64,000 bases of DNA from Actinomycetota bacterium (GTDB taxonomy: Bacteria; Actinomycetota; Humimicrobiia; Humimicrobiales; Humimicrobiaceae): the NCBI GenBank assembly GCA_028717265.1, contig JAQUOE010000005.1, forward strand, positions 4,190 through 68,189. The letters run 5' to 3'. Below the pieces are notes generated by a model. It was not told where the DNA came from, did not search any database, and was given only the letters and a program-made list of their open reading frames with translations. Made by a program: the position numbers and the translations under genes. Below are positions 16,811 to 45,268 of this stretch, piece after piece. Every line of letters starts with the position of its first letter. The first letter of the stretch is position 1.

Positions 16811-17479
16811 ATGTATAAATTATTGAGTTATTATGTAAAGACAAATAACCCTAAATATCCCGGTCACCCGGGTAATGAGTTTGAAAGTGTATTGAAAATA
16901 GAAAAAGGGAATATTTGTAATTCAACAAGAATAAAACTATTTACTCATAACGATACGCATATTGATTCGCCATATCATTACAATACAAATGGCATAAAAG
17001 TCCATGAAATTAGCCCCGATAATTTTTTCTATAACAAAGTAGCAGTTGCAAACCTGGAAGGTAAAATTGGTAAAGAAATTACTATTTCTGATGTGGGAAA
17101 AATATCAGATGATGCTGATATGCTAATGATCCATACAGGCATTTCCAGATATTGGATTAATTCTCCCGAGGAATATGTTGCAAAAGAAAATCAACCCTGG
17201 ATATCAAGGGAACTTACAGATTATTTGATAAGGGAGAGCAATATAAAGGGCATAAGTGTCGATTTTATGAGCGTCGATAATATAGATGATATCGAAAATA
17301 AAGATCCTTTCGTACATCGGGTTTTTTTAGGTATGAATGATTTATCGAAAATCATTTTTATTTATGAAAATGTCAATATTAAAACAATATTGAATGAGAG
17401 TGTAAAAAAGATATATGCGTTCCCGCTGTTACTTTATGGATTAGATGGTGCGCCTGTTACTATGGTAGCTGAAATTTAA
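16811..17479 (+). CDS. cyclase-family protein (kynurenine-formamidase-like metal hydrolase), paralogue 1
   Basis: YPGHPG...HNDTHIDSPYH matches the HxGTHxDxPxH metal-binding motif of the PF04199 'putative cyclase' family. Confidence 0.75.
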   Translation: MYKLLSYYVKTNNPKYPGHPGNEFESVLKIEKGNICNSTRIKLFTHNDTHIDSPYHYNTNGIKVHEISPDNFFYNKVAVANLEGKIGKEITISDVGKISDDADMLMIHTGISRYWINSPEEYVAKENQPWISRELTDYLIRESNIKGISVDFMSVDNIDDIENKDPFVHRVFLGMNDLSKIIFIYENVNIKTILNESVKKIYAFPLLLYGLDGAPVTMVAEI

Positions 17480-17516
17480 TGTGTTACTAATTAAAAACGA
17501 TTATTTTATTTAAAGA

Positions 17517-18764
17517 ATGAAAAGTATTAAATTACCGCAAGGCGGAATATTCGATAAAAAAGACATAAAGCTTGATTTCCCAAAAAACTGGGATGTGGAG
17601 GTTTGCGATTCTCCTGCAAATAAAATGAAGGCCATTACTTCAAAAAAAATGTCTGATTTAATTAATAGTCCGGTTGGGTCCAGGACTATCAGAGAAGCTG
17701 CCCGTGATAAAAGTAAAGTGGTACTAATTATCGAAGATATCAGCCGTGGTACCAGGATAGATAAAGTTATCAAATTTATTCTTAAAGAGTTGATTTCAAC
17801 AGGCATAAGAGAAGATGAAATTGAAATAATTTGTGCCGTCGGGGCCCATGGTGCGCATGATCGTATAGATTTCGTTAAAAAGTTAGGTAAGGAAGTAGTA
17901 GAAAAATTTCCTGTTTATAATCACAATCCTTTTTTTAATTGTAAATATATAGGAAAAACAAGTAGAGGAACAAGAGTTCTGATAAATCCCGAGGTTCTGG
18001 AATGTGATTTAAAAATATCTGTCGGTACCATTGTTCCGCACCCTTTATTCGGATTTAGCGGAGGAGGAAAAATAATCCTTCCGGGCATATCGTCCATAGA
18101 AACCATATACAGCAATCATATATTAGAATCAGATTCCTTAAAAGGGATAAAGGGAAATTTTGTTGATGGATTGGGAAGAATTGAAAATAATGTAATGCAG
18201 AGAGAAATGGAAGAAGTATGTGAAATGGTCGGGATTGATTTTCTGGTCAACGCACTCGTGGATTATAATGGTGAAATCGTTGATCTGGTAGCCGGTCATC
18301 CTATTTATGCACATAAGGAAGGAGTTAAAAAAGCGAAGGAGATTTATGGCACAAGTTATAAATCAAAAGCAGATTTAGTTATAGCTAATGCTAATTTTAA
18401 AATCAATGAAGCGAATATAGCTCTGGCATTTGGAAAAAAGAGTCTGAAGAATAACGGAGATATTGTAATAATAAACCATTCAAGAATAGGCCAGGTTACA
18501 CATTATTTGTGTAGTGGGTTTGGATATAATTATGGAGGTAAATTCTGGAGTAAAGATAAAGGTAATACCACCAAAAATATAAATAAAGTAATTTTATTCA
18601 ATCCTTATATTAATAAAATAGATGAGGATTGGTTCGGAGGATTTGGAAAAGTCAAGTGGGCATCCGAATGGCAGGAAGTTATAAATTTATTGGATTATGA
18701 TTCTGATAATAACGTTTCGGTTAATTTATTTACAGATGCAACAATTCAATATTTCTTGAATTAA
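17517..18764 (+). CDS. LarA-family (lactate-racemase-like, DUF2088) protein, paralogue 1
   Basis: 415 aa. Conserved GTIVPHPLFGFSGGGKIILPG block (the GFSGGxK lysine region of LarA) and histidines in AVGAHGAHD. Confidence 0.7.
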   Translation: MKSIKLPQGGIFDKKDIKLDFPKNWDVEVCDSPANKMKAITSKKMSDLINSPVGSRTIREAARDKSKVVLIIEDISRGTRIDKVIKFILKELISTGIREDEIEIICAVGAHGAHDRIDFVKKLGKEVVEKFPVYNHNPFFNCKYIGKTSRGTRVLINPEVLECDLKISVGTIVPHPLFGFSGGGKIILPGISSIETIYSNHILESDSLKGIKGNFVDGLGRIENNVMQREMEEVCEMVGIDFLVNALVDYNGEIVDLVAGHPIYAHKEGVKKAKEIYGTSYKSKADLVIANANFKINEANIALAFGKKSLKNNGDIVIINHSRIGQVTHYLCSGFGYNYGGKFWSKDKGNTTKNINKVILFNPYINKIDEDWFGGFGKVKWASEWQEVINLLDYDSDNNVSVNLFTDATIQYFLN

Positions 18765-18826
18765 AAATTTAACCAATGTAGTTTTTAAAAACTATTTAAT
18801 TATAAAATATTATAGGAGAGTTTATT

Positions 18827-19585
18827 TTGGAATTTGATGAGAAAGTAATAGCCATAACAGGAGGAGGAACAGGAATAGGCAGAGCCATTGCCACCGGCTT
18901 TGCTAAAGAGGGTGCAAAAGTTATTATTTCCGGGAGACGGGAAAAACCTTTAAAGGAAATAAAATCCTTGATTGAAAAAATCAATAAAAATATTGAATAT
19001 ATGCAGGCTGACGTTAGTGATTCAGCTATGGTCGATAATTTTATTAATAAAGCAATTAAGCTTTATGGAAGTCTGGATGTCTTTATAAACAATGCAGCTG
19101 TAAGTATAGGTAAAAGCATAGTGGACACTACCGATGAAGATCTGGATTATGTGCTTTCGGTAAATTTGAAGGGTTATTTTTACGGAATGAGATCTGCTAT
19201 AAAAAAGTTTATAGAACTTAATAAAAAAGGCGTGATTATAAATATATCGTCGATTCTTGGACTGAAGGGTCATTTATACAGAGGTGCTTACTGTGCATCA
19301 AAAGCGGCAATAAATAATCTAACCAGATGTGCCGCCATGGAATATGCCGATAAGAATATAAGAATAAATGCAATATGCCCAGGAGTAATTGAAACAGATA
19401 TGGTCAAAACGCAGTGGGATTCACCGCCGGATCCTGTTAAAGAAATGTTAAAAGGCATACCAATGAATAGGATGGGAAGTTGTGATGAAGTCGCAAAATT
19501 GGTTTTGTTTCTTTCTTCAGAATCTTCTTCCTATATAACGGGTTCTGTTATCACGGTTGACGGAGGTTGGTCTGCAGGAAAATAA
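18827..19585 (+). CDS. SDR-family oxidoreductase
   Basis: ITGGGTGIGRAIA, NNAAV, YCASKAA motifs. TTG start with an aggag RBS. Confidence 0.85.
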   Translation: MEFDEKVIAITGGGTGIGRAIATGFAKEGAKVIISGRREKPLKEIKSLIEKINKNIEYMQADVSDSAMVDNFINKAIKLYGSLDVFINNAAVSIGKSIVDTTDEDLDYVLSVNLKGYFYGMRSAIKKFIELNKKGVIINISSILGLKGHLYRGAYCASKAAINNLTRCAAMEYADKNIRINAICPGVIETDMVKTQWDSPPDPVKEMLKGIPMNRMGSCDEVAKLVLFLSSESSSYITGSVITVDGGWSAGK

Positions 19586-19651: not shown

Positions 19652-20401
19652 ATGAAAGTTTTAAGTAAATGTTTCGGCATAATTGATTTAATAAAAAGCA
19701 AAGACATGAATTTGACTGAAATATCAAAAGAATTAAATATTAATAAAAGCACCGCTTATTCAATATTAAAAGATTTACAAAAATTTGGTTATGTATATAA
19801 GCTCAACACTAATAAGAAATACAGGCTTGGCTATAAGTTTTTTGAGATTTACAACTATTTAATAACTAAGATAGATTTAATGAAGGAAGCAGAGAAAATA
19901 GCCGATGAGTTAAATATATTGACAAATGAGACGATACACGTTGGAACCTTTATCAGCTCTAAAGTATATAATATTTATAAAAAAGAGAGCGATAAGCCGA
20001 TAAGAGTATATATCGAAGGATTCAAAGAAGTACCAATATATTGTACAGGTATCGGTAAAGCTATATTAGCAAATCAAAAAAAAGAAAAGATAGATGAAAT
20101 ATTAAATAAACTGGAATTTAAAAAATATACTAAAAATACAATTACTGATATGGATGATTTGAGAAGAGAATTAGAAAAAATAAAAAATTCCGGATATGCA
20201 ATTGACAACGAAGAGCATCAGGAAAATGTATGTTGTATTGCAACTCCTGTTAGAAATTATACAAATGAAGTAGTGGCTTCGATAAGTATCACATCGATTA
20301 AATATAAAACAGATGTTGATTATTTAGTGGATAAATACAAAAGTTTAATAATGCAAAAGGGTTTCGAGCTGTCTTTAAGGTTAGGTTACAATAATGATTA
20401 A
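19652..20401 (+). CDS. IclR-family transcriptional regulator
   Basis: N-terminal wHTH (LTEISKELNINKSTAYSILKDLQKFGYV) and a C-terminal IclR effector domain. Confidence 0.75.
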   Translation: MKVLSKCFGIIDLIKSKDMNLTEISKELNINKSTAYSILKDLQKFGYVYKLNTNKKYRLGYKFFEIYNYLITKIDLMKEAEKIADELNILTNETIHVGTFISSKVYNIYKKESDKPIRVYIEGFKEVPIYCTGIGKAILANQKKEKIDEILNKLEFKKYTKNTITDMDDLRRELEKIKNSGYAIDNEEHQENVCCIATPVRNYTNEVVASISITSIKYKTDVDYLVDKYKSLIMQKGFELSLRLGYNND

Positions 20402-20424
20402 ATTGAGTAAGGATAAAAAATAAT

Positions 20425-21960
20425 ATGAAAGTAAAAGAAAATAACTCTCTGGAACTGAAAAATATCAGTAAGCTTTACCCGGGAACGATAGCTTTAAGAA
20501 ATATTAACTTATCGATAAGCGGGGGATATATCCATGGCATAATTGGGAAAAATGGAGCCGGAAAATCAACATTAATAAACATTATTTCCGGCCTGACTTA
20601 TCCTTCCGAAGGCCTCATTTCTATAAATGGAAAAGAATATCCAAGACTTAGTAGGATTCTGTCTAAAAAGGAAAATATTGCTGTAATTACTCAAGAACCG
20701 CAATTAGTTCCCGAACATACAATTGTTGAGGCTTTATTCAGCCCTAATTATATCCAGAAAAACGGTATTATAAACTGGAAAAAGATGAAAGAGAAATCTG
20801 TTTCAATGCTCAATTCACCATTATTAAAAAAAATAAAAGGTAAAAGGGCTATTAGAGATTTAACAATAAGTGAGCAGCAATTGCTATTGGTTTTTAAAGC
20901 CATTAACCTGGAAGGTGCCAATATAATAATTTTAGATGAAACGACTGCTTCGTTGACGCAGGACGATCAGAATCTTCTATATGAATTCATAATAAATCAG
21001 AAAAATATGGGCAAATCAATAATTTTTATTACCCATAGGATGCAGGAGATTTTGGATATATGCGATAAAGTTTCTGTATTGCGTGATGGTGAGCTCATTA
21101 ATACCATTTCAACCAAAAATCTTAATATGGGAGAATTGTCCTCTTATATTATTGGGGATAGCAAGTTGGCAGAGATCGATAGTACAGATAGGAAAAAAAC
21201 AAAAAAGAAGATTTCCGATGAAACTGTATTACAGCTGAAAGATTTAAGCAAAATGGGCGATTTTATGAATATCAATTTGGAAATTAAAAGAGGAGAGATT
21301 GTTGGTCTTGCCGGTTTGAGAGGTAGCGGAAGGACGGAGTTATTTAATTCAATTATTGGTATAAATAATTTTGATACGGGTGTCTTAAAAGTAAAGAATG
21401 TGGAGAAAAAATTTAAAAGTCCTTCCGAGGCATTGGCCGGTGGGATAGCATATCTACCGGAAGAGAGAGATAGGGAGGGTATAGTAAATGAATTGGGAGT
21501 AATGGATAACCTGGTTTTAAGCTGTTTAAAAAAACTATGCGTTTTTAAAAATGTGGGAATTATCAAAGATAGCAAAAAGCGAGATCTGGCAAAAAATTTA
21601 ATAAAAAAACTATCCATAAAAACTATCTCACTTGATCAAAAAGTAAAGGATTTAAGCGGCGGCAATAAACAAAAAGTTGTTGTGGGAAAAATACTTTCCG
21701 TTATGCCGGATATATTTATATTGGACGAGCCAACCAAAGGAATAGATATAGAAGCAAAAAATAGCATATTAAATATAATTGAAAAAGACTTAAGCAGGGA
21801 AGCCGGTATTTTAATTACCTCACCGGGACTTGGAGATCTTATAAAAATTTGCGATAGGATAATAGTTCTTTTAAATGGGGAAATAGTTGAGGAAGTTGAG
21901 AGTAATAAATTTAATGAAAATAAAATTTATTTAGCGATGCAGGGTAAAATAAATTCATGA
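20425..21960 (+). CDS. sugar ABC transporter ATP-binding protein with duplicated ABC domains (CUT2; RbsA/MglA-like)
   Basis: Walker A GKNGAGKST in domain 1, LSGGNKQKV signature in domain 2. 511 aa fused tandem ATPase. Confidence 0.85.
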   Translation: MKVKENNSLELKNISKLYPGTIALRNINLSISGGYIHGIIGKNGAGKSTLINIISGLTYPSEGLISINGKEYPRLSRILSKKENIAVITQEPQLVPEHTIVEALFSPNYIQKNGIINWKKMKEKSVSMLNSPLLKKIKGKRAIRDLTISEQQLLLVFKAINLEGANIIILDETTASLTQDDQNLLYEFIINQKNMGKSIIFITHRMQEILDICDKVSVLRDGELINTISTKNLNMGELSSYIIGDSKLAEIDSTDRKKTKKKISDETVLQLKDLSKMGDFMNINLEIKRGEIVGLAGLRGSGRTELFNSIIGINNFDTGVLKVKNVEKKFKSPSEALAGGIAYLPEERDREGIVNELGVMDNLVLSCLKKLCVFKNVGIIKDSKKRDLAKNLIKKLSIKTISLDQKVKDLSGGNKQKVVVGKILSVMPDIFILDEPTKGIDIEAKNSILNIIEKDLSREAGILITSPGLGDLIKICDRIIVLLNGEIVEEVESNKFNENKIYLAMQGKINS

Positions 21961-22006
21961 CCATATTTCAATAAATATAAATAAGAAAGTATTCAGGAGG
22001 ATTACT

Positions 22007-23023
22007 ATGTCAAAGTTTTCAAAAATTTCATTGTGGTTAATTGAAAATATGATTTGGGTCATACTGTTAGTGTATGTTGTGATAAATATTTTTGTTACAC
22101 CAAAATTTGTGACTTATGGAAACATCACTAACATATTCTACCATTCTTCCGTATTAAGCATGTTGGTTTTAGCACAGGGGCTGGTTCTTTTATTGGGCTA
22201 TATGGATCTTTCAATAGAATCTACATTGGCTTTCGCACCGGTGATATCAGTACTATTGCTGGTTAAGTATATTCCGTGGATTACACCTGTTGGGGCAATC
22301 GTCTTGACTTTGCTTCTGGGATGTTTGGTTGGTGCATTTAACGGAACAATGATTACAAGATTTGGTATAAACCCTTTTTTACAGACATTATCACTTTTGA
22401 TAATACTCAGGGGCATTGTAATCTTCCTTTTACCGGTGTCGATATTTGAATTTAGTGATGTTTATAGTGCACCTGGAGCTTTGAGAACAATATTTAATAT
22501 TCCGGTGGCTGTTTTCATCATGATATTCGTATTCATAATTTTTCATTTTGTTCTAAATAAAACAATATTTGGCAGGCACCTTATTGCCACAGGCGGAAAT
22601 AATCTATCAGCATATATTTCCGGTGTAAATACAAAAAGAGTAGTATTTATAACATTTGTTATTAGTGGATTGCTGGCCGCATTAGCAGGTCTTATAATGG
22701 CAGGCAGGCAACAGGCTGTGACAAATGCGATGGGTGATGGAATGGTTTTTGAATCTTTTGCCGGGGCTATTTTAGGTGGAGTTAGTTTAAAAGGAGGCGT
22801 AGGTAAAGTTTCCGGAATGCTGGGAGGAGTCTTGCTGTTGGGTGCGATAGATAACTCATTAAATCTACTGGGCATTAACGTATTTTTAATCTATGCATCC
22901 AAAGGATTATTAATATTTGTTGCAATTGTATTGGATCAGGCAAAAGTTAAGCTGAAAAATTATATTTATTACCGTGAAGATATGAGAAGGTTTAAAGAAA
23001 CTAAGGAAATAGCAGGTGTTTAA
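22007..23023 (+). CDS. sugar ABC transporter permease (CUT2; RbsC-like)
   Basis: Polytopic membrane protein of the BPD_transp_2 type. Confidence 0.8.
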   Translation: MSKFSKISLWLIENMIWVILLVYVVINIFVTPKFVTYGNITNIFYHSSVLSMLVLAQGLVLLLGYMDLSIESTLAFAPVISVLLLVKYIPWITPVGAIVLTLLLGCLVGAFNGTMITRFGINPFLQTLSLLIILRGIVIFLLPVSIFEFSDVYSAPGALRTIFNIPVAVFIMIFVFIIFHFVLNKTIFGRHLIATGGNNLSAYISGVNTKRVVFITFVISGLLAALAGLIMAGRQQAVTNAMGDGMVFESFAGAILGGVSLKGGVGKVSGMLGGVLLLGAIDNSLNLLGINVFLIYASKGLLIFVAIVLDQAKVKLKNYIYYREDMRRFKETKEIAGV

Positions 23024-23148
23024 AAGCTTTATAAAAGTATATTTATATATTTAAGATTTTTATGAAATTTATTTACAAATCATTATATGTGAATGGCGAA
23101 AGTAAAAGAAGAAAGTTATGGATTCCGGTTCTAAAAGCCATAAAACTT

Positions 23149-23181
23149 CTTACTCCCTGCAATCATGTTATCGGGAGTAAG
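23149..23181. repeat. hairpin CTTACTCCC-N15-GGGAGTAAG in the permease-SBP spacer
   Basis: Seen directly. The same stem sequence recurs in the hairpin downstream of the SBP gene (24591..24626). Confidence 0.3.
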
Positions 23182-23408
23182 ATTTGAAATAAAACAATTA
23201 TTTTAATAGTCTAATACATAGTATAGGGGGAGGTGGTAAAATTTTAATTAAAAATAATATTATTAAAAATAAGAGTGTATTAAAAGGAGATGATAGTAAG
23301 AATAAAAAAATGAGATTTGCTTTAAATTTGTGTAGCGCATGCTCCATTTAAAAACAAATCTCGAGGATATTATAATAATGGGTCACAATTAAATCAAGGA
23401 GTATCAAA

Positions 23409-24566
23409 ATGAAAAAGTTATTAATTACATTAGTTATAGTGTGCTTGGTTTCTTCCATAATATTTATAGGTTCAGGGTGTAAGGCAGAGGAAACTCAGGC
23501 AGAAGAAGTTGGAGAGGAAACTCAAGCAGAAGAAACTCCGGCAGAAGAAGTCACTGAGGCAGATATTGGTGATGAAGATATAGTGATCGGAGCCAGTTTC
23601 CGTGTATTGACCACAGAGTTCCATAATGCTATTAACGTTGCTGCAGAGAAAAAAGCTGAAGAGCTGGGAATAGGATATTTGAGTGTAACAAGCGGGAATT
23701 CTCCGGAGAAACAAATTTCACAAATGGAGAACTATATTTCTCTTGGAGTTGACGGATTTCTTCAGGGCGGAACTATTGATAATAGAGCCATTGTCCCGGG
23801 TATCGAGGCATTGAATGCAGCAAATATTCCAGTAGTTGGTGTTGATTCAAAGCCAGCTGGTGGAAAAATGGAATTGTTTATCAGTTTTGATAATGTAAGA
23901 GCTGCTGAACAGGCTGGTGAAGCGATGATCAAAGTATTAAAAGAGGAAAATGGCGGTGTGTTGCCTGAAAAAGGTGTGATAGTAGAAATTACCGGAGATT
24001 TGAGGGATACTGCGCAAGCTTTGAGGCATGAAGGTTTTGATAATGTCGTTAACGAAGATTTATATCCACAGTTTACAATTGTTCAGGGTGAAGGTAAATG
24101 GAATCCAGATGAGGCATTTCAAGTTACTTCTGATATATTCACAAAATATGGCGACGATATAATAGCCTTATATGCACATACAGACCAAATGTTTTCGGGT
24201 ATATTTTCAGCAATCGAACAGGCAGGTTATGATCCTGCAGATTTAGTGGTAACCAGTATGGATGCTAATTCAGCTGGTCTGACTTATATGGAAGAAGGTT
24301 TAATTGATGCATTACCTATTCAGGATGCTGCATCTTATGGCGCTCTGGCAGTAGAATATCTGTATAAGAAAATAATGGGAGAGGAGATGCCGGAAGTCGG
24401 TGATACAGTTACAGTAGAAGGCGAATTGTGGTCACCTGCCATGATAGTAGAAGATGAAGAAGGTGTATGCCCAATAATGCTTCTGAACAGTCCTATCGTT
24501 CCCTGGGATGTGCCTACAACTGATCCCAGAATATGGGGTAATATAGCAAGAGGAATAACCGAATAA
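23409..24566 (+). CDS. sugar ABC transporter substrate-binding lipoprotein (CUT2; RbsB-like PBP)
   Basis: Signal peptide with a FIGSGC lipobox, then an acidic EETQAEE repeat linker, then a type I periplasmic binding protein fold. Confidence 0.8.
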   Translation: MKKLLITLVIVCLVSSIIFIGSGCKAEETQAEEVGEETQAEETPAEEVTEADIGDEDIVIGASFRVLTTEFHNAINVAAEKKAEELGIGYLSVTSGNSPEKQISQMENYISLGVDGFLQGGTIDNRAIVPGIEALNAANIPVVGVDSKPAGGKMELFISFDNVRAAEQAGEAMIKVLKEENGGVLPEKGVIVEITGDLRDTAQALRHEGFDNVVNEDLYPQFTIVQGEGKWNPDEAFQVTSDIFTKYGDDIIALYAHTDQMFSGIFSAIEQAGYDPADLVVTSMDANSAGLTYMEEGLIDALPIQDAASYGALAVEYLYKKIMGEEMPEVGDTVTVEGELWSPAMIVEDEEGVCPIMLLNSPIVPWDVPTTDPRIWGNIARGITE

Positions 24567-24590: not shown

Positions 24591-24626
24591 CTTACTCCCC
24601 ATCAGTATAAACTGATGGGGAGTAAG
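24591..24626 (+). terminator. GC-rich stem-loop after SBP gene (putative intrinsic terminator / REP-like hairpin)
   Basis: CTTACTCCCCATCAG-tataaa-CTGATGGGGAGTAAG followed by a partial T-run. Confidence 0.45.
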
Positions 24627-24694: not shown

Positions 24695-25726
24695 ATGAAA
24701 GCTGTATTTTTGGAAGAACCAAAAAAAATATCAATACGGGAAATACCTGAGCCAACTTGTTCTGATGATAAGGTGATCATCAGAATAAAGAGGGTCGGGA
24801 TATGTGGAAGTGATGTACATTTTTTTAATGATGGCAGAGTAGGCGATTTCGTTATGAAAGAGCCTTACATATTGGGCCACGAGAGTTCAGGAGTAATAGA
24901 AGAAGTTGGAAAAAACGTTAAAAATTTTAAAGTTGGTGATCGTGTAAGCATAGAGCCGGGTGTTCCTTGTTATAAATGTAATTTCTGCCTGGAAGGCAGA
25001 TATAATTTGTGTAAAAAAGTCGTATTTATGGATGTTCCTGGATGTGACGGAGCTTTAAGAGAATTGATAGAATATGATCCTAATTTTATTTATAAAGTAT
25101 CAGATAATGTAAGCCTTACGCAGGCAGCTCTGGTTGAGCCCCTTGCAGTTGGATATTTTGCTATATCAAAAGCAAAAATATTACCGGGGGACAAAATTTT
25201 TATATTGGGGTCCGGACCAATTGGTATAGCTATTTTAGAGATGGCAAGGATTGCCGGTGCTTCTGAAATATTTATTTCAGATATAAATGAATATAGATTG
25301 AAAGTTGCGAAGGAGCATGGTGCAAAATATACATTAAATCCCGGTAAGATAGATATAGAAAAATTTGTTTCGGACAAAACAGAAGGCCTCGGGGCAGATG
25401 TTGCAATCGAAGCTGCGGGTTCAGAAGAAACTATCAGGCAATCTTTAAGAGTTGTAAAAAGTGGCGGTAAAGTAGTATGGGTAAGTGTAGGAAAAGAGGA
25501 AATAACTATTCCTTTTCAAAAGATTATTTTTAATGAGCTAAGAGTGGAAGGAATAAATAGATATGCTAATTCATATAAAAGAGTTATTGAATTATTGGAA
25601 AATGGATTAGTTAATTTCGAATCATATGTATCAAAAAGAATTAAATTAGAAAACGTAGAGGAAGCTTTTAAGATTGCAAATGATCCTGAAGCTGAAGTTA
25701 TGAAAATAGTTATAGAAATAGATTAG
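24695..25726 (+). CDS. zinc-dependent MDR dehydrogenase (sorbitol/threonine-DH-like)
   Basis: GICGSDVHFF, GHESSG and CYKCNFC motifs, GSGPIGIA Rossmann. Confidence 0.8.
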   Translation: MKAVFLEEPKKISIREIPEPTCSDDKVIIRIKRVGICGSDVHFFNDGRVGDFVMKEPYILGHESSGVIEEVGKNVKNFKVGDRVSIEPGVPCYKCNFCLEGRYNLCKKVVFMDVPGCDGALRELIEYDPNFIYKVSDNVSLTQAALVEPLAVGYFAISKAKILPGDKIFILGSGPIGIAILEMARIAGASEIFISDINEYRLKVAKEHGAKYTLNPGKIDIEKFVSDKTEGLGADVAIEAAGSEETIRQSLRVVKSGGKVVWVSVGKEEITIPFQKIIFNELRVEGINRYANSYKRVIELLENGLVNFESYVSKRIKLENVEEAFKIANDPEAEVMKIVIEID

Positions 25727-25785
25727 GGGAGTATTAGCTTAAAGTTGTTAATGCATCGAATAGTTCTTACTGAAAGGAGGAAATT

Positions 25786-26556
25786 TTGAAAGAATTTTTT
25801 GACATTAAAGATTATTGCGTAATTATTACGGGTGCAAATAGGGGCCTGGGGAAAGAAATGGCATTAGCATTTGCGGATTGCGGAGCAAATGTAGTAATAA
25901 CTTGCAGAGACCTGAACTCAGTTGCAGAGTTAGTTAAGGTTATTGAAAAGAAAAATGTGCAAGTATTACCAATAAAAATGGATGTGAGAAATGAGGATGA
26001 AATCAATCAGATGGTTGAGGATGTCATGGAAAAATTTGGAAAAATTGATGTTCTGGTTAATAATGCTGCTATTTGTCAGACCGTAGAAGTGGAAAATATG
26101 AAGACAAGTGATTGGAATGAGACAATAGATGTTAATTTAACCGGTGTTTTCCAGGTTTCAAAAGCTGTCGGGAGGAAAATGATTCTACGAAAAAAAGGAT
26201 CAATTATAAATATATCATCAATTTCTGGATTTATTATGAATCATCCTCAGAAGCATACTGCATATTGTGTATCCAAAGCCGGCGTTATTATGCTTACGAA
26301 AGGTATGGCTGCCGAATGGGCCGAATATAATATAAGAGTCAATAGTGTCGCACCGGGTTACACAACCGGAGGGATGGCTAAGCCATCAGTAGAAGAGGGT
26401 GGAGAAATGGCTGAAAGATGGCGGTCATTAATACCTATGCATAGATTTGGAAAACCTGGTGAACTAAGCGGTATTTTAATTTATCTTGCTTCGGAAGCTT
26501 CGACGTATACCACAGGAGCTACTTTTTTGATAGATGGTGGTTTTACTGTTTGGTAA
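25786..26556 (+). CDS. SDR-family oxidoreductase (KduD/gluconate-5-DH-like)
   Basis: ITGANRGLGKEMA, NNAAI, YCVSKAG motifs. Confidence 0.85.
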   Translation: MKEFFDIKDYCVIITGANRGLGKEMALAFADCGANVVITCRDLNSVAELVKVIEKKNVQVLPIKMDVRNEDEINQMVEDVMEKFGKIDVLVNNAAICQTVEVENMKTSDWNETIDVNLTGVFQVSKAVGRKMILRKKGSIINISSISGFIMNHPQKHTAYCVSKAGVIMLTKGMAAEWAEYNIRVNSVAPGYTTGGMAKPSVEEGGEMAERWRSLIPMHRFGKPGELSGILIYLASEASTYTTGATFLIDGGFTVW

Positions 26557-26600
26557 AAAATATAATTTCAATGGTCATAGAGCATCTGGGAGTGTAAAAA

Positions 26601-28268
26601 ATGAAATTTGGTGATGATAACAGGCGTATACTTGAAGGAGATGAAGGAGCCCAATTAAGGTCTTTGTATAAAAGCATGGGTTATACCAATGACGATTTAA
26701 GAAGGCCAATGATTGGAGTAGTCAATTCGTGGAATACAGCATGTTCCGGTCAATTTAATCTGCGCGCAGTTGCAGAATCTGTAAAAAATGGGATTTATAG
26801 AGCTGGAGGTACGCCAGTCGAGTTCGGTACCATAGGGCCATGTGATGGTATTGGAATAGGTAACAATGGAATGAAATATATTTTACCGTCCAGGGACCTG
26901 ATCGCACAGAGTGTAGAAGTTATGGCATCAGCACATTCATTGGATGCTGTAGTTTTATTGGGAAGCTGCGATAAGATAGTGCCCGGATTATTAATGGCAG
27001 CCGCAAGGTTAAATATACCCGCGATTTTAGTGCCCGGTGGTCCAATGCTGCCCGGTAAATTTGAAAATAAATTTATTGATGTAAATCAGGTAATGATTAA
27101 TTTAGGTGCACTTTATTCAGGAAAATTGACAAAAGAAAAATTTAAAGAATTAGAGAGGGTTGCATGCCCTACTTCAGGTTCCTGCCAGATGATGGGTACA
27201 GCAAATACTTTTTGTAGTTTTTCAGAAGCTATTGGTATGAGTTTACCATCGAGCGCAGCTATACCTGCTGTTTATTCTGAAAGATTACATTCGGCGCAAG
27301 ACGCTGGGAAAAAAATACTGGAATTATTCCAAAAGAATATTAGACCAAGAGACATAATGACCAAAGAAGCAATAATCAATGGCATAAGAGTTGCGATGGC
27401 AGTAGGGGGTTCCACTAATTTAATATTGCATACAATGGCTCTGGTAAATTCTCTGGATATAGATTTTAAAATTGATGAATTTAATGATATCAGTGACAGT
27501 ACGCCTTATTTATGTTCTCTGGCACCTGCCGATAATTCAAAAACCATGATTGATTATTATTTTGCAGGAGGTGCCGCTGTTGTTATGAAGGAATTGGAGA
27601 GTTTACTTGATTTAAATTGTATTACAGTAAGCGGTAATACACTGAAGGAAAACTTGAAGGTTATTATAAATAAGGACAATGAAATGATAAGACCGATCAG
27701 CCGGTCTTTTAGAAATACAGGTGGTCTGGCGATTTTGAGAGGTAACCTTGCTCCGGATAGTGCGGTTACGAGACCCGCCGTGATTGCAAAAGAATGCAGA
27801 CAAATGTGCGGTCCGGCAAAAGTATTTAATTCGGAAAATGAGTTTTTTAAAGCAATTAATAAAAGTGCCATTAAAGAGGGCGATGTCATAGTTGTGAGAT
27901 ATGAGGGTCCCAGAGGTGGTCCGGGAATGAGAGAGATGTTCATACCTCTGGAAATTATAAAGGGTATGGGTCTTGAGGGAAAAGTAGCCATTATTACTGA
28001 TGGCCGTTTTTCCGGTTCTAATTCTGGCAGCTTTGTCGGACATATTTGTCCTGAAGCTGCCGATGGTGGCCCGATAGCTTCCGTGAAAGATGGCGATATT
28101 ATCGACATTGATATAGATAAAAAAACAATAAATATGAGAGTCTCTGATGATGAGATAAAAAATAGACTTAAAAATATTTCCGAAGTAAAAAGGGATATAG
28201 GCAACGGCTACTTATCATTTTATGTAAAACATGTGAGTCCATCCTCAAAAGGTGCGGTTTTAATATAG
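26601..28268 (+). CDS. IlvD/EDD-family dehydratase (dihydroxy-acid / sugar-acid dehydratase)
   Basis: CDGIGIG and LLGSCDKIVPGLLMAAARLNIPAILVPGGPM motifs, with C-terminal ITDGRFSG. Confidence 0.85.
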   Translation: MKFGDDNRRILEGDEGAQLRSLYKSMGYTNDDLRRPMIGVVNSWNTACSGQFNLRAVAESVKNGIYRAGGTPVEFGTIGPCDGIGIGNNGMKYILPSRDLIAQSVEVMASAHSLDAVVLLGSCDKIVPGLLMAAARLNIPAILVPGGPMLPGKFENKFIDVNQVMINLGALYSGKLTKEKFKELERVACPTSGSCQMMGTANTFCSFSEAIGMSLPSSAAIPAVYSERLHSAQDAGKKILELFQKNIRPRDIMTKEAIINGIRVAMAVGGSTNLILHTMALVNSLDIDFKIDEFNDISDSTPYLCSLAPADNSKTMIDYYFAGGAAVVMKELESLLDLNCITVSGNTLKENLKVIINKDNEMIRPISRSFRNTGGLAILRGNLAPDSAVTRPAVIAKECRQMCGPAKVFNSENEFFKAINKSAIKEGDVIVVRYEGPRGGPGMREMFIPLEIIKGMGLEGKVAIITDGRFSGSNSGSFVGHICPEAADGGPIASVKDGDIIDIDIDKKTINMRVSDDEIKNRLKNISEVKRDIGNGYLSFYVKHVSPSSKGAVLI

Positions 28269-28386
28269 TTCTTTGTCAATTTATAGTCATATAAATGTAT
28301 TTATTGAAATTTATTTTATGTTTTTATGAAATTATTATTATAGCTAATTAATTTAATGAATAAGTCCTGATCCTGGAGGTATATTA

Positions 28387-29268
28387 ATGAAGAAAATAAA
28401 AGGTGTAGTACCCCCGATGATTACACCGTTTAAAAAAAATGGGGATTTAGATGTTGAGAACTTGAAAAAACTCATCAGGTTTTTAAAAAATGAAGTTGAT
28501 GGATTGTTTATAACCGGTTCTTATGGCTCGGGAGCCCTGATGAATTTAGAAGAGAGAATGAAAGTAGCTGAAATAACATCAGAAATATTGGAAGGTAAGA
28601 TACCATTTATCACTATGGTCGGGACTACGAATAATAGAGACTCGGTTGAGCTGGCAAAACATTCAGAGAGGTCCGGTGCGACCGCAGTAGCAGCTACCGG
28701 TCCTTATTATTATAAGCACAACAAAGAAGATTTAATGAGATTTTATACAGATTTAATAGAATCTGTTAGTATTCCGGTTTATTTATATAATAATCCAAAG
28801 TTTCAGGGTTATGAAATTAGCTTATCAACTATAAAAGAATTAAAGAAAATAGGTTTAAGAGGTATAAAAGACGCAACTTTTGATATCCTGGTTCATGCCA
28901 ACTACCACAGGGTTTTAAAGGACAATGAATTTGATATTGTTTTAGGAACGGAAGCAATGTGGCTGGCCGCAAGAACCCTGGGTTGCGAAGCTTTTATACC
29001 GGGACTCGCAAATGTGTTTCCTGAAATAAATAGAAAAATGTATAAAGAGGGTATGTGTAACAATATTGAAGCATGCAGGGAAACTCAATTTATGGTAAAT
29101 AGAATCCGCGAGATAATGTACCTGGCAAGATCCACACAATTAGCGGTATATGCCATGTTAGACATAAGAGGTATTGTTAAATGCTATCCCAGAGCGCCGT
29201 TCGTGGAGGCGACAGGAGAAGAAAAAAAGAAAATAAAGGTTGAATTAAAGAAAATAAAAATGATTTAA
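28387..29268 (+). CDS. DHDPS/NAL-family class I aldolase (2-keto-3-deoxy-acid aldolase candidate), paralogue 1
   Basis: VPPMITPF..., GLFITGSYGSG, and the Schiff-base Lys context GIKDATFD. Confidence 0.8.
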   Translation: MKKIKGVVPPMITPFKKNGDLDVENLKKLIRFLKNEVDGLFITGSYGSGALMNLEERMKVAEITSEILEGKIPFITMVGTTNNRDSVELAKHSERSGATAVAATGPYYYKHNKEDLMRFYTDLIESVSIPVYLYNNPKFQGYEISLSTIKELKKIGLRGIKDATFDILVHANYHRVLKDNEFDIVLGTEAMWLAARTLGCEAFIPGLANVFPEINRKMYKEGMCNNIEACRETQFMVNRIREIMYLARSTQLAVYAMLDIRGIVKCYPRAPFVEATGEEKKKIKVELKKIKMI

Positions 29269-29314
29269 ATTTTAATTAAATTAGTGACTTTACTTATTTA
29301 TATTCAAAAAAGAT

Positions 29315-30337
29315 ATGTATGCAGCTATAGACACAGGTACTACAAATACAAGGATTTATATTATTGATGATAATTATAGGGTAGTAAATAAGGCTGAAAA
29401 AAAAATTGGCGTTAGAGAAACTGCCATTACAGGTTCAAAAAAGAAACTCAAAGAAGGACTGTTATCATGTTTTGAAGATGCAGTAAGAAATTCCGGAGTT
29501 GGTACCAGTGATATAAAATTTATTTTAATCTCCGGTATGTTAACTTCAGAAATTGGCTTATTGGATATTCCTCATTTAAAAGCGCCTGTTGGGATCCAGG
29601 AGCTGGTTAGTAATGTTAAAATCATAAAGGATACAGAAATTTTTCCGGTTAGCATACCATTAATATTTATTCCCGGTATAAAAAATAATATAAAAGATAT
29701 GAATATTACAAATATTCGAAAAATAGATTTTATGAAAGGCGAAGAGACACAGGTATTTGGGATTCTTCAAAAGCTGAAACCTGAGTTACCATGTAACGTA
29801 ATATTTTTCAGCTCACACACAAAACTAATTCATATAAGTATAGGAGAAAAGATTGCAGGTAGTATCACTACACTCAGCGGGCAGATTTACGAAGCGATAA
29901 AAAAGCAAACGTTTATAGGGAAAAGTATTACTCATAACGATTATGGCGTGGTTGATGATTTCTTTTCTGCAAAACTTCTAAAAATTGCGCTGGAAAGTGT
30001 CGAAAATGCTGGATTTTTACGTTCATTGATGATGCCGCGTTTCATGGAAGTATTAATGGATACCACGAGTTACGAAAGGGAATTTTTCGTAAATGCAGTG
30101 ATCTCATCGGAAGACATAAAAATTTTGCATGAAGCAAAAAAATTAATGGGTTTTGATATTAATAATGCCCCGGTTATTCTTATCGGAAACAAAACAAGAT
30201 GCAGAATTTTTAAAGAGTTACTTAAGATTAATAAATTAAATCTTTCAGTTCGAAGTATTTGTGATAATGATTCAATAGATGAGTTCGTCGTTGAAGGTGG
30301 GAAAATGGTCGTTAAGCAAATGATCGATAGACCATGA
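29315..30337 (+). CDS. 2-dehydro-3-deoxygalactonokinase-like (DgoK family) sugar-acid kinase
   Basis: N-terminal AIDTGTTNTRIY and IFIPGI...MKGEETQVFGIL align with the DgoK AIDWGSTNLRAW / IIPGL...MRGEETQLIG blocks. Confidence 0.65.
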   Translation: MYAAIDTGTTNTRIYIIDDNYRVVNKAEKKIGVRETAITGSKKKLKEGLLSCFEDAVRNSGVGTSDIKFILISGMLTSEIGLLDIPHLKAPVGIQELVSNVKIIKDTEIFPVSIPLIFIPGIKNNIKDMNITNIRKIDFMKGEETQVFGILQKLKPELPCNVIFFSSHTKLIHISIGEKIAGSITTLSGQIYEAIKKQTFIGKSITHNDYGVVDDFFSAKLLKIALESVENAGFLRSLMMPRFMEVLMDTTSYEREFFVNAVISSEDIKILHEAKKLMGFDINNAPVILIGNKTRCRIFKELLKINKLNLSVRSICDNDSIDEFVVEGGKMVVKQMIDRP

Positions 30338-33639: not shown

Positions 33640-34305
33640 ATGTTTGCATTAATTTCTTACCCGATCGGGGAAAAAGAGACCGTTCCATATAAAATAGAGC
33701 CCAAACCAAAATTAATCCCTAAAGCACGAATTTCAAAAGGTGATATAAATAATACAAGTATGCTGGAAATGAGTGTTCATGGGGGTACTCATATTGACGT
33801 TCCTTTTCATACAGACCCAAACGGATTGACGATAGATAAAATGGATATCCAGGATTTTATATTTGAAAGTCCTCTGCTGATAGAATGCCGGAAAAGTGAT
33901 TTTGAAACAATAACCAGGGAAGATTTGATCCCATTTTGCAAAGATTTAGAAAAAGCCGATTTTTTAATGATATATTCAGGTTTTAGTGAGTACAGATTTA
34001 CTGATTCAGATAGGTTTATCAATAACTCATGCGGTATTTCAAAAGATGGAGCTGAATATCTCGTAAATAATTTTAATTTAAGAGGCGTGATGGTTGATTT
34101 TCTTGGAGTCGAGAATATAAATGAAGGTCTTGAAAAAGGTTTCAAGGCTCATGAGGTATTCTTAGCAAGGGGAAAGAAATTTATTGTTGTAGAAGATGGA
34201 AATTTTAAGCATATTTTAAATAAAGAAATAAAAAGAGTATTTATCATACCTTTGATGCTGGTAGGTGCAGAAGCGTCTCCGGTTACTGCATTTGTTGAAA
34301 TATAA
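33640..34305 (+). CDS. cyclase-family protein, paralogue 2
   Basis: HGGTHIDVPFH motif. Strong RBS ggagg. Confidence 0.75.
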   Translation: MFALISYPIGEKETVPYKIEPKPKLIPKARISKGDINNTSMLEMSVHGGTHIDVPFHTDPNGLTIDKMDIQDFIFESPLLIECRKSDFETITREDLIPFCKDLEKADFLMIYSGFSEYRFTDSDRFINNSCGISKDGAEYLVNNFNLRGVMVDFLGVENINEGLEKGFKAHEVFLARGKKFIVVEDGNFKHILNKEIKRVFIIPLMLVGAEASPVTAFVEI

Positions 34306-39517: not shown

Positions 39518-39545
39518 GCCGGATAAATGAAAAAATATTAAAAGT

Positions 39546-40538: not shown

Positions 40539-40573
40539 CATGGCAAACGATGAGTTTTTTCAAGGAGGAAAAA

Positions 40574-41248: not shown

Positions 41249-41289
41249 ACTGATAAATATTATTTGAGAAAGAATAGGATAAATAAGGC

Positions 41290-45241: not shown

Positions 45242-45268
45242 ATTACAAAGTAATTATTGTTTTACAAT

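Follow-up and report, generated by a model that had tools for sequence, protein, structure and literature searches.

Five genes in the window analyzed here (the whole stretch of DNA, 64 kb) most likely act to break down a six-carbon sugar acid to pyruvate and triose phosphate. The probability that they form a semi-phosphorylative hexonate route, of the De Ley-Doudoroff or modified Entner-Doudoroff type, is put at roughly 0.55. The chemistry underlying such a route is already known, and the dehydratase, the kinase and the aldolase each come from uncharacterized family branches.

Organization of the module and proposed route

The five genes are closely packed between positions 24695 and 30337, all on the + strand:

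24695..25726, + strand: MDR Zn-dehydrogenase, 343 aa (Pfam ADH_N and ADH_zinc_N)
25786..26556, + strand: SDR oxidoreductase, 256 aa (Pfam adh_short_C2, 220 bits)
26601..28268, + strand: IlvD/EDD Fe-S dehydratase, 555 aa (Pfam ILVD_EDD_N and ILV_EDD_C, 400 and 231 bits)
28387..29268, + strand: DHDPS/NAL class I Schiff-base enzyme, 293 aa (Pfam DHDPS, 185 bits)
29315..30337, + strand: DgoK-family ASKHA kinase, 340 aa (Pfam DGOK, 99 bits against a cut-off of 25)

The Pfam assignments agree with the five families and the gene order given in the earlier, sequence-only reading. The gaps between the genes measure 59, 44, 118 and 46 nt, in that order, and none of them holds a terminator-like site on the + strand. 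The SDR-IlvD-DHDPS-DGOK order is likewise present in the near-identical contig of a second strain (L091). The host is an uncultured low-GC anaerobe.

Several parts of the proposed scheme are inferred: the sequence of steps, the epimerase role of the two dehydrogenases, whether the aldolase substrate is phosphorylated, and what the substrate is. It would be taken up, probably by the adjacent IclR-controlled ABC system, and the MDR and SDR enzymes would oxidize and then re-reduce a secondary carbon, which amounts to an epimerization via a keto-acid. The Fe-S IlvD/EDD enzyme would then convert the aldonate to a 2-keto-3-deoxy-hexonate, the DgoK-like kinase would phosphorylate its terminal hydroxyl, and the DHDPS-type Schiff-base aldolase would release pyruvate and glyceraldehyde 3-phosphate. 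The most literal guess at the substrate, held with low confidence, is L-idonate/5-ketogluconate/gluconate. The portion of this scheme that runs from the dehydratase through a 2-keto-3-deoxy acid to the kinase and aldolase had been suggested before, and is retained as the best reading.

The dehydratase

Profile classification places the IlvD/EDD protein among true IlvD enzymes. It clears the NCBI TIGR00110 ilvD model (645 vs 618) and the threshold of NF002068, and its nearest solved structures are dihydroxy-acid dehydratases (DHADs; 432 bits), with L-arabinonate dehydratase lower at 335. These matches would fit an ordinary DHAD of branched-chain amino-acid synthesis whose position here is incidental, a reading that we consider very improbable because the loop motif and the gene context disagree with the profiles. 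The protein carries a CDK signature at residues 123-125 and the catalytic loop TDGRFS472-GSNSG, which is found in nearly all of its best 120 homologues; this subfamily has SG[ST]N in the loop, and every solved DHAD as well as E. coli IlvD has SGG[ST]. The subfamily relatives with known context lie in catabolic, non-biosynthetic clusters in seven cases out of seven, while the sole relative in a leuB-ilvD-ilvB context is only 48% identical and has a loop of the canonical type (SGASRG). An ilvBC-type setting, named beforehand as the finding that would speak for biosynthesis, was not encountered: the gene is the only IlvD/EDD gene in the 64-kb window, it has no ilv or leu neighbors there, and tblastn searches of the window with IlvB and LeuB gave no match. 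We propose that this member of a DHAD-like SG[ST]N subfamily is an aldonate dehydratase that yields a 2-keto-3-deoxy acid.

The dehydratase has its closest relative, 70% identical, in a cluster with the gene order Amidohydro_2 (lactonase-like)-IlvD-RraA-Eda-PfkB, and another (64%) near DHDPS, 2-hydroxyacid dehydrogenase, PfkB and MDR genes. PfkB and Eda fill, in the relatives of the dehydratase, the slot that is held here by the DgoK-like kinase and the DHDPS-type aldolase.

The kinase and the aldolase

The kinase matches no NCBIfam model. It shares 20% identity with E. coli DgoK, as well as the motifs IDxGxTN, GEETQ and (S/T)HxK, which are invariant in 22 members of its clade. Its AF2 model (pLDDT 92) finds the DgoK structures 3t69 and 3r1x as best matches (E values from 1e-21 to 1e-18), the next ASKHA protein following at 1e-9. 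The DgoK assignment, which had been staked on alignment over the ASKHA catalytic motifs, thus stands, with ASKHA motifs, DgoK motifs and DgoK fold all kept. The protein belongs to a distinct DgoK-family clade of ~340 aa, and we propose that it is a 2-keto-3-deoxy-hexonate kinase.

The aldolase falls below all NCBIfam equivalog cut-offs (dapA, 158/206; archaeal KD(P)G aldolase, 148/390; NanA, 147/281). The Schiff-base Lys161 and Tyr134 are invariant across 58 members of its clade, here called DHDPS1; sequence identity within the clade is 55-73% across phyla, and its genes adjoin the kinase. Archaeal KD(P)G aldolases are themselves members of the DHDPS fold, and for this reason a DHDPS-type aldolase is not in itself non-phosphorylative. 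Their phosphate-binding triad R106/Y132/R237 is, however, replaced by K110/N136/Y245 in DHDPS1, in which H111, R241 and R/K248 are conserved close by in sequence. Since the archaeal triad is not kept, cleavage of a phosphorylated substrate stays a proposal, and we suggest a 2-keto-3-deoxy(-phospho)hexonate aldolase that forms pyruvate and triose(-phosphate).

The DHDPS superfamily also includes dehydratases of the L-2-keto-3-deoxyarabinonate dehydratase/KdgD type, and the KdgD models do match the window protein weakly (70 bits against a cut-off of 374). A Weimberg-type route to 2-oxoglutarate semialdehyde, in which this protein would be such a dehydratase, is nevertheless highly unlikely: the KdgD scores lie far below those of the aldolase and synthase models, the window has no aldehyde dehydrogenase gene, and a kinase is not called for in such a pathway.

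Conservation of the kinase-aldolase cassette

The sequence-only reading saw the two proteins as a hybrid, one element non-phosphorylative and the other phosphorylative. A survey of 78 loci in other genomes, from many phyla, shows instead that they form a conserved cassette and not a one-off mixture: the DgoK-like kinase directly adjoins a DHDPS1 gene in 45 of the 78 loci, and the two are at most three genes apart in 54. The pair is taken to be present in hundreds of anaerobes, the 45 loci being those in which adjacency was counted. Six loci from Enterobacterales (two from Symbiopectobacterium, one each from Pectobacterium and Serratia, and two from Yersinia) combine the kinase clade with an Eda-type KDPG/KHG aldolase, which occupies the DHDPS place, and also have a D-galactonate-type (DgoT-like) MFS transporter. 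From this combination of an Eda-type aldolase and a galactonate transporter, the expected product of the kinase is a phospho-2-keto-3-deoxy acid.

Other partners of the cassette vary. The commonest third partner (38/78 loci) is a hydroxypyruvate/glyoxylate-reductase-type 2-hydroxyacid dehydrogenase; others are IclR genes (32/78), FAH-family proteins (19 loci), the acid transporters TctABC and TRAP (about 17 loci each) and CUT2-type ABC transporters (about 10). A dehydratase of any kind lies near the cassette in only about 7 of the 78 loci, about 70 having none; IlvD/EDD genes occur in loci L016, L020 and L021, and enolase-superfamily genes in L018, L021 and L055. Given how few loci have a dehydratase and how many have the 2-hydroxyacid dehydrogenase, the usual substrate of the cassette may not come from aldonate dehydration.

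The window could therefore hold two units, with the cassette acting on another acid that needs no dehydratase and the IlvD module adjacent by chance. The scarcity of dehydratases, the recurrence of 2-hydroxyacid dehydrogenase, FAH, TctABC and TRAP genes, and the AT-rich nature of the 118-nt gap between the dehydratase and aldolase genes would all be in keeping with this. We regard it as improbable, given that the genes share one strand with no + strand terminator-like site between them and keep an identical order in the second strain, that dehydratases from two families do recur near the cassette, and that the displacement pattern involving PfkB and Eda is explained most simply by one pathway.

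A second alternative, still unlikely but less so, is that the DHDPS-type aldolase cleaves a non-phosphorylated acid to pyruvate and glyceraldehyde or another aldehyde, and that the DgoK-like kinase acts later, on glycerate, glyceraldehyde or glycerol, with GlpA-like flavoenzymes processing the triose phosphate. The missing phosphate-binding triad and the frequent 2-hydroxyacid dehydrogenase partner are consistent with such a sequence, as are the GlpA-like, Pyr_redox_2 and DUF1667 genes found directly 3' of the kinase, both in the window and in the second strain. GlpA-like genes are, however, not conserved beside the cassette. Fusobacterium varium has an IclR-IlvD(SG[ST]N)-GntP-DHDPS cluster that lacks a kinase, which indicates that kinase-free routes exist in anaerobes, but its DHDPS belongs to a different clade and is about 26% identical. 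The kinase itself has the fold of DgoK and retains the motifs specific to that family, GEETQ and HxK; its enterobacterial counterparts pair with an Eda-type aldolase (activities named in NCBIfam: KDPG, KDPGal and 4-hydroxy-2-oxoglutarate), and KdgK-like PfkB kinases take the equivalent slot among the closest relatives of the dehydratase. These observations speak against the alternative.

The dehydrogenase pair

The best NCBIfam matches of the MDR protein (IolM, Tdh and L-idonate 5-dehydrogenase) are all under cut-off. Its nearest solved structures are ketose reductase/sorbitol dehydrogenases (253-241 bits) and L-arabinitol 4-dehydrogenase (232), followed by xylitol dehydrogenase (199); sorbitol dehydrogenases thus outscore L-idonate 5-dehydrogenase (156). 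Among NCBIfam models the SDR protein comes closest to the gluconate 5-dehydrogenase subfamily (240 bits, below the cut-off of 279), and its nearest structures are the polyol dehydrogenase 3awd, the galactitol dehydrogenase 2wdz and the gluconate 5-dehydrogenase 1vl8. SDR-MDR pairs adjoin the cassette in about 9 of the 78 loci.

Judged by these similarities, both proteins resemble secondary-alcohol enzymes of polyols and aldonates and not aldose 1-dehydrogenases. The idea that two dehydrogenases lead from sugar to aldonate thus gives way to an aldonate-epimerizing pair, which fits better. In this proposal the MDR enzyme would carry out the first half of an oxidation and re-reduction of a hexonate or polyol, and the SDR enzyme, as its keto-acid or ketose reductase partner, the second. 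IdnD and IdnO convert L-idonate to 5-keto-D-gluconate and then to D-gluconate, and LgnH and LgnI convert L-gluconate to D-idonate.

Such a pair would no longer need a lactonase, which would explain why no recognized lactonase is found in the window. Searches by tblastn over the 64 kb gave no match to E. coli DgoD or DgoA, an Eda-type aldolase, a PfkB kinase, two Amidohydro_2 proteins, a PF10282 lactonase or an enolase-superfamily dehydratase, and together with Pfam they bear out the earlier statement that DgoD, DgoA/Eda and a recognized lactonase are missing. The three cyclase-family (PF04199) genes reported for the region are indeed present, at 16811-17479, 33640-34305 and 40550-41248. They had been suggested as candidates for the lactonase step, whereas the nearest relatives of the dehydratase have Amidohydro_2 genes as neighbors instead.

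Comparison with known pathways

A close parallel in logic is the lgn operon for L-gluconate, whose families reportedly also comprise MDR, SDR, IlvD/EDD and DgoK, with a linked ABC transporter, according to the original 2012 description. In Paracoccus laeviglucosivorans 43P, a dehydrogenase and a reductase epimerize the aldonate at C5, a dehydratase forms KDGal, and a KDGal kinase and then an aldolase lead to pyruvate and GAP (PMC12632266). LgnH/LgnI/LgnE/LgnF/LgnG thus follow the five-step logic proposed here. In contrast with lgn, the window has an aldolase of the DHDPS/NAL and not the DgoA/Eda type, a kinase from a remote clade and a DHAD-like dehydratase from the SG[ST]N subfamily.

The archaeal semi-phosphorylative Entner-Doudoroff pathway of Sulfolobus and Thermoproteus uses GDH, gluconate dehydratase, KDG kinase and KD(P)G aldolase. 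Like the window, this branched pathway combines a dehydrogenase of the MDR family with a Schiff-base aldolase of the DHDPS fold, the latter acting after sugar-acid dehydratase and KDG kinase; an aldolase of this type is thus able to serve a phosphorylative branch. It differs in its enolase-superfamily dehydratase and PfkB kinase, and DHDPS1 shares only about 27% identity with S. solfataricus KDGA.

Gut Clostridia (Blautia and Enterocloster) are reported to have a 'modified ED' gluconate route made up of gluconate dehydratase, KDG kinase (KdgK) and Eda (PMC11424487). Dehydration, phosphorylation and cleavage follow in the same order as proposed here, and the closest relative of the window dehydratase sits in such a PfkB and Eda cluster, whereas the kinase and aldolase of the window come from unrelated families and two dehydrogenases precede the dehydratase. 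The window shares its kinase family with E. coli dgoRKADT, the De Ley-Doudoroff D-galactonate system, and, with the L-idonate genes idnDOTR, an MDR and SDR pair beside a sugar-acid transporter, at family-level identity (30% to IdnD, 36% to IdnO). Unlike these systems it has no homologue of DgoD, DgoA or DgoT, and its regulator is of the IclR and not the GntR or LacI type.

Transport, regulation and accessory genes

Upstream of the module, on the same strand, lie the following features:

16811-17479, + strand: cyclase-family hydrolase (Pfam Cyclase)
17517-18764, + strand: homologue of LarA-like Ni-dependent 2-hydroxyacid racemase/epimerase (Pfam Lar_N)
18827-19585, + strand: second SDR (Pfam adh_short_C2)
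19652-20401, + strand: IclR-family regulator (Pfam IclR_C/HTH_IclR)
20425-21960, + strand: CUT2-type ABC ATPase (Pfam ABC_tran, twice)
22007-23023, + strand: permease (Pfam BPD_transp_2)
23409-24566, + strand: substrate-binding protein, weakly RbsB- or XylF-like (Pfam Peripla_BP_4)
24591..24626, + strand: perfect 16-bp stem-loop between the binding-protein and MDR genes, read from the sequence

Judging from strand and proximity, the IclR and CUT2 ABC genes (19652..24566) probably regulate the module and import its substrate. CUT2 transporters usually carry neutral sugars or polyols. The transporter type counts against the hexonate route, together with the ilvD equivalog match and the greater closeness of the MDR protein to sorbitol dehydrogenases.

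The genes at 16811..19585 may belong to the module and add possible tailoring steps. The LarA homologue is under every NCBIfam LarAH cut-off; the cassette has a LarA homologue nearby in 10 of the 78 loci and a cyclase in 9. The stem-loop has no clear T-run 3' of the stem, and its predicted RNA fold has an MFE of -34.2 kcal/mol (z = -5.0 vs shuffles); it is a candidate intercistronic stabilizer or partial terminator, possibly dividing the transporter genes from the enzyme genes.

Organization of the module

The five genes of the module were assigned with Pfam as follows:

24695-25726, + strand, MDR Zn-dehydrogenase
25786-26556, + strand, SDR
26601-28268, + strand, IlvD/EDD-family dehydratase
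28387-29268, + strand, DHDPS-family aldolase (DHDPS1)
29315-30337, + strand, DGOK-family kinase

The ORF calls agree exactly with the positions given for these genes in the sequence-only reading, and the gaps between them are, in order, 59, 44, 118, and 46 nt. The first 14.5 kb of the window is devoted to housekeeping functions (fatty-acid synthesis, PASTA kinase, malic enzyme), and from 16.8 to 47.7 kb nearly every gene is on the + strand and belongs to sugar or sugar-acid metabolism. The genes upstream of the module on this strand encode a CUT2-type ABC system, an IclR regulator, a cyclase-family hydrolase, a LarA homologue, and a second SDR.

The absence of DgoD and DgoA/Eda claimed earlier was borne out by tblastn of the 64 kb, which found neither, and the same held for the missing lactonase, since queries with Amidohydro_2 and the PF10282 lactonase gave no match. 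Over the same 64 kb, tblastn found a single IlvD/EDD gene and no other enolase-type dehydratase, PfkB kinase, IlvB, or LeuB. Scans for promoters and terminators between 16 and 36 kb returned the same counts as shuffled sequence and were not used. The spacer that separates the MDR gene from the gene for the ABC binding protein (minimum free energy of −34 kcal/mol, z = −5.0) contains a perfect hairpin (24591-24626; 16-bp stem, 4-nt loop), which may act as an mRNA stabilizer or partial terminator.

The dehydratase

Profile classification, proposed earlier to separate true IlvD from sugar-acid dehydratases, returned IlvD (645.1 versus 618.15 for TIGR00110; 677 for NF002068, cut-off 644), but the loop motif and the genomic context disagree with a biosynthetic role. 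The nearest solved proteins are dihydroxy-acid dehydratases (DHADs) from plant, mycobacterial, and cyanobacterial sources (432 to 406 bits), followed by L-arabinonate dehydratase (335 bits). The protein scores below the cut-offs of the sugar-acid families, with 440 of 882 for L-arabinonate dehydratase, 259 of 808 for YjhG/YagF (D-xylonate), and 266 of 708 for Edd. The Fe-S/Mg signature C123-D124-K125 and the catalytic serine in TDGRFS472 are present. The loop that follows this serine reads S-G-S-N, and S-G-[ST]-N recurs in nearly all of the 120 top-scoring homologues. It differs from the S-G-G-[ST] of the DHADs of Mycobacterium tuberculosis, Synechocystis, and Arabidopsis, of 9ix7, and of Escherichia coli IlvD. 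The sole homologue found between leuB and ilvB, at 48% identity, has an S-G-A-S-R-G loop.

All seven SG[ST]N members with readable surroundings lie in catabolic clusters, and no ilv or leu genes were found near the dehydratase within 64 kb.

Surroundings of SG[ST]N dehydratases (locus; identity and source where available; neighbors)
L092; 70%; Amidohydro_2-IlvD-RraA-Eda-PfkB
L086; 64%; IclR-ABC-IlvD-Amidohydro_2-RraA-2HADH-DHDPS-x-DHDPS-2HADH-PfkB-MDR
L085; 69%; IclR fragments, sugar-isomerase-type TIM barrel, PGI, hexokinase
L088; 55%, Thermanaeromonas; RpiR and TRAP
L096; Tissierellia; GntR, 3HCDH, BKACE, TRAP
L097; Fusobacterium varium; IclR-IlvD-GntP-DHDPS
L098; Megasphaera; three IlvD/EDD paralogues among SDRs and a flavoprotein

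Because of this loop motif and these catabolic contexts, we conclude that the protein is a putative member of a DHAD-derived sugar-acid dehydratase subfamily, for which the name ilvD is probably an over-annotation. A metagenome scan with the dehydratase gave five loci only, of which L092 and L091, a contig of a near-identical strain, were informative.

The homologue P0133 (L087, 9001-11394) was rejected as an example of a closely related protein in ilv surroundings, given that its score is inflated by a duplicated sequence and its true identity is 48%. This 797-amino-acid IlvD, in a leuB-ilvD-ilvB context, has two copies of both the N and the C domain of ILVD_EDD, which is probably the product of a partial tandem duplication or an assembly artifact.

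The kinase

The 340-amino-acid kinase matches Pfam DGOK (PF05035) with 99.2 bits against a cut-off of 25, over profile positions 1 to 266 of 281, and matches none of the NCBIfam models. Identity with E. coli DgoK is 20%, and the N-terminal IDxGxTN motif and the GEETQ and (S/T)HxK motifs align, as they do with the Sinorhizobium meliloti protein 3t69. Residues D6, G8, T9, G142-E-E-T-Q146, and S167-H-T-K170 are invariant or nearly so in 22 diverse clade members. An AlphaFold (AF2) model with a pLDDT of 92 retrieved in Foldseek the two solved DgoK structures, 3t69 (E = 1.5e-21, TM 0.73/0.81) and then 3r1x (9e-19), far ahead of the next ASKHA proteins at 1e-9. The earlier assignment to DgoK thus stands, with the ASKHA phosphate-1, GEETQ, and (S/T)HxK motifs all kept. 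[quoted passage not shown]

Within the family, the protein falls in a separate clade of approximately 340-amino-acid members. This clade comprises 404 clusters at 50% identity with E ≤ 1e-30 in a library of 1.84 billion proteins, and in a pattern-limited scan the genomes of 366 species were found to encode relatives, among them members of the Clostridia, Spirochaetota, Atribacterota, Halanaerobiales, and NC10. A look-up of the exact protein sequence returned no record. The genomic partners of the clade are a DHDPS clade or, in Enterobacterales, an Eda-type aldolase; in the window, linkage to DgoD/DgoA was not found.

The aldolase

DHDPS1 scores below every NCBIfam equivalog cut-off for DapA (157.8, cut-off 206), NanA (147 versus 281 and 114 versus 382), archaeal KD(P)G aldolase (NF040954; 148, cut-off 390), HpaI-like proteins, and KdgD. 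Residues were compared by aligning 58 clade members to the KDG (2-keto-3-deoxy-gluconate) aldolase of Sulfolobus solfataricus (sequence of PDB 1w37). Since K161 and Y134, the equivalents of the Schiff-base Lys155 and of Tyr130 in S. solfataricus numbering, are invariant in all 58, a class I pyruvate-aldolase mechanism is a well-supported prediction. The phosphate site of the archaeal KD(P)G aldolase, which we take to be Arg106', Tyr132, and Arg237, is replaced by K110 (Lys in 29 of 58), N136 (58 of 58), and Y245 (56 of 58), and the motif GSYG(S/A/G)G occupies the place of the archaeal GTTGLG. The clade-conserved basic residues H111, R241, and R/K248 lie near these phosphate-site positions in the sequence. 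DHDPS1 may plausibly use a phosphorylated substrate.

Two other assignments were rejected, namely, membership in the archaeal KD(P)G aldolases, by the NF040954 score and the absent phosphate triad, and a Weimberg-type dehydratase role, by the lack of an aldehyde dehydrogenase gene in the window and the weak KdgD scores. The DHDPS genes beside the IlvD relatives of F. varium and L086 belong to other clades (about 22 to 27% identity).

The kinase-aldolase cassette in other genomes

Neighborhoods were compared by calling ORFs in 84 fetched loci and labeling them by BLAST and clustering, and the kinase was detected in 78 of these loci.

Gene families near the kinase (loci out of 78)
DHDPS, almost always of the same clade as DHDPS1: 56
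D-2-hydroxyacid dehydrogenase: 38
IclR regulator: 32
SDR: 19
FAH-family protein: 19
TctABC transporter: about 17
TRAP transporter: about 17
LarA homologue: 10
ABC type of the window: 10
Cyclase: 9
MDR: 9

The DHDPS gene directly adjoins the kinase gene in 45 of the 78 loci and lies at most three genes away in 54. One cultured carrier of the cassette is Anaerotruncus colihominis DSM 17241. The DHDPS1-clade neighbors are 55 to 73% identical to the gene of the window and are better conserved than the kinase. The combination of kinase and DHDPS-type aldolase, described in the sequence-only reading as a hybrid, is therefore a real pairing, but rather than a one-off mix it is a stable and widespread one.

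Six Enterobacterales loci differ (L040, L043, L051, L057, L068, and L079; two from Symbiopectobacterium, one each from Pectobacterium and Serratia marcescens, and two from Yersinia). There, a tandem pair of DgoK-like paralogues is accompanied by an IclR regulator, an Fe-ADH, an MFS transporter of the D-galactonate type, and an Eda-type KDPG/KHG aldolase, and none of the six has a dehydratase. That an Eda-type enzyme stands in the place of DHDPS is an argument for a phospho-2-keto-3-deoxy acid as the product of the kinase and the substrate of the aldolase. The tandem paralogues are about 30% identical to each other's clade, and the clusters, which are uncharacterized acid-sugar clusters, occur in cultivable and genetically tractable hosts.

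A dehydratase is rarely found beside the cassette, with IlvD/EDD only in L016, L020, and L021 and an enolase-superfamily member in L018, L021, and L055 (n = 78). Most cassette loci therefore have none, and often a 2-hydroxyacid dehydrogenase is present instead, so that the commonest substrate of the cassette may arise otherwise than by dehydration. The cassette core, usually with a 2-hydroxyacid dehydrogenase, could be read as an undescribed dehydratase-free pathway acting on an unassigned acid, with a new kinase specificity instead of one for KDG or KDGal, which we consider unlikely. A possible route would oxidize a 2-hydroxy acid to the 2-oxo acid, phosphorylate it, and then proceed by Schiff-base cleavage or elimination; the cassette of the window would then have been joined to a DHAD-derived dehydratase that the NCBI ilvD model names dihydroxy-acid dehydratase.

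The dehydrogenases and the lactonase step

The MDR protein is nearest to sorbitol dehydrogenase/ketose reductase (253 to 241 bits), with L-arabinitol 4-dehydrogenase and xylitol dehydrogenase also among its neighbors. It scores lower against L-idonate 5-dehydrogenase (156 bits) and is 30% identical to E. coli IdnD. Polyol dehydrogenase, galactitol dehydrogenase, and gluconate 5-dehydrogenase are the nearest to the SDR. Among NCBIfam models it comes closest to the gluconate 5-dehydrogenase subfamily, with a score just under the cut-off, and it shares 36% identity with IdnO. Both are predicted secondary-alcohol enzymes, and neither is specifically like an aldose 1-dehydrogenase. In about nine other loci neighboring SDR-MDR pairs stand beside the cassette, and TRAP (acid) transporters are present in several of these loci. 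The simplest interpretation is that the two form an oxidize/re-reduce pair that alters the configuration of an aldonate, and a lactonase would therefore not be needed. The CUT2-type transporter would fit a neutral sugar or polyol equally well.

Orthology with IdnD/IdnO was rejected, given that the identities are at family level only and sorbitol dehydrogenases are the better match to the MDR protein; for these reasons L-idonate is no more than a guess for the substrate. The cyclase-family hydrolases, put forward in the sequence-only reading as lactonase candidates, have members of their family near the cassette in 9 of the 78 loci. The nearest relatives of the dehydratase adjoin instead Amidohydro_2, a family that includes known sugar lactonases. 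A search of the accessible literature found no link between PF04199 (the cyclase family) and lactonase activity.

Pathway model and its significance

Our main model, to which we give a probability of roughly 0.55, is the degradation of a sugar acid through a phosphorylated 2-keto-3-deoxy intermediate. [quoted passage not shown] As judged from sequence, the weak points of this model are an aldolase that appears to lack the archaeal phosphate site and the scarcity of dehydratases among the cassette loci.

The proposed route follows the same logic as the De Ley-Doudoroff, lgn, and clostridial modified Entner-Doudoroff pathways, the last of which has been reported for Blautia and Enterocloster (PMC11424487), but three of its steps use other families or subfamilies. 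The lgn-type aldonate pathway joins an epimerizing dehydrogenase pair with a dehydratase, a kinase, and an aldolase (PMC12632266), and the module has five corresponding families in one co-directional cluster. E. coli IdnD/IdnO are a precedent for the oxidize/re-reduce pair, and LgnH/LgnI of Paracoccus 43P are one for an epimerizing dehydrogenase pair (PMC12632266). A search of the accessible literature found no account of the kinase clade, the DHDPS1 clade, the SG[ST]N dehydratases, or the cassette. The chemistry is known, and what is new is the enzyme set of the module.

If the model is correct, the lower pathway by which many anaerobes process 2-keto-3-deoxy sugar acids would be a portable pair of a DHDPS-fold aldolase and a DgoK-fold kinase, which replaces KdgK/Eda and is a bacterial counterpart of the archaeal arrangement. 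The large SG[ST]N group named dihydroxy-acid dehydratase by the NCBI equivalog model would then probably consist of aldonate dehydratases, and counting its members as IlvD would overstate branched-chain amino-acid synthesis in metabolic reconstructions of uncultured anaerobes. The gluconate dehydratase of clostridia, an oxygen-sensitive enzyme known from older enzymology, may also be one of these proteins. Leads for enzyme discovery are Fe-S sugar-acid dehydratases and pyruvate aldolases with flexible stereochemistry. None of these points overturns known biochemistry, and the cassette and the probable ilvD over-annotation should be useful, rather than startling, to specialists in sugar-acid metabolism.

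Other features of the window

The kinase and the dehydratase are identical to proteins on a 68,435-bp contig of a metagenome-assembled genome labeled Actinomycetota bacterium, but the G+C content of the window is low (about 31 to 43%). Metagenome-assembled genomes of Clostridia, Halanaerobiales, Tissierellales, and Atribacterota encode the proteins most closely related to the kinase, the aldolase, and the dehydratase. The Actinomycetota label of the source genome may result from an error in binning or classification.

An exact 1494-nt direct repeat (30478-31971 and 34396-35889) is confined precisely to one gene, and its copies encode identical 495-amino-acid GlpA-like FAD oxidoreductases with a BFD [2Fe-2S] domain. 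Between the copies lie genes for Pyr_redox_2, DUF1667, and cyclase proteins. The near-identical strain contig L091 has one copy followed directly by a TIM-barrel gene, and the 3918-bp unit is absent. Either recombination has recently duplicated or deleted the unit, or one of the two assemblies is mis-joined across the repeat. The adjacent SDR genes at 43692-44456 and 44492-45241 share a 268-nt stretch of 100% identity (43705-43972 and 44502-44769) that then falls to 77%, which suggests partial gene conversion between tandem paralogues.

A second module (38636-43636) follows a DeoR gene of divergent orientation. It begins with a DHDPS paralogue (38636-39517; 41% identical to DHDPS1), whose neighbors are a D-2-hydroxyacid dehydrogenase and a cyclase, and also contains three glyoxalase/VOC-family proteins and a C_GCAxxG_C_C protein. 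At L002/L003 (1-2161), loci from outside the window, a DHDPS2-like gene is followed by a 406-amino-acid cyclase protein.

Two homologues of LarA, a Ni-pincer racemase/epimerase, occur in sugar-acid-type clusters (17517-18764 and 59686-61014), and both score under all NCBIfam LarAH cut-offs. The second lies behind a CUT1 ABC system, and its companions are a 2-hydroxyacid dehydrogenase, an MDR, and two isomerase-like proteins of the TIM-barrel type. Finally, the region 45257-47748 holds an FGGY-family kinase, which matches xylulokinase best (308 against a cut-off of 380) and is followed by an ARMT1-like "damage-control" phosphatase, a pair that could serve in proofreading of a phosphorylated sugar by-product.
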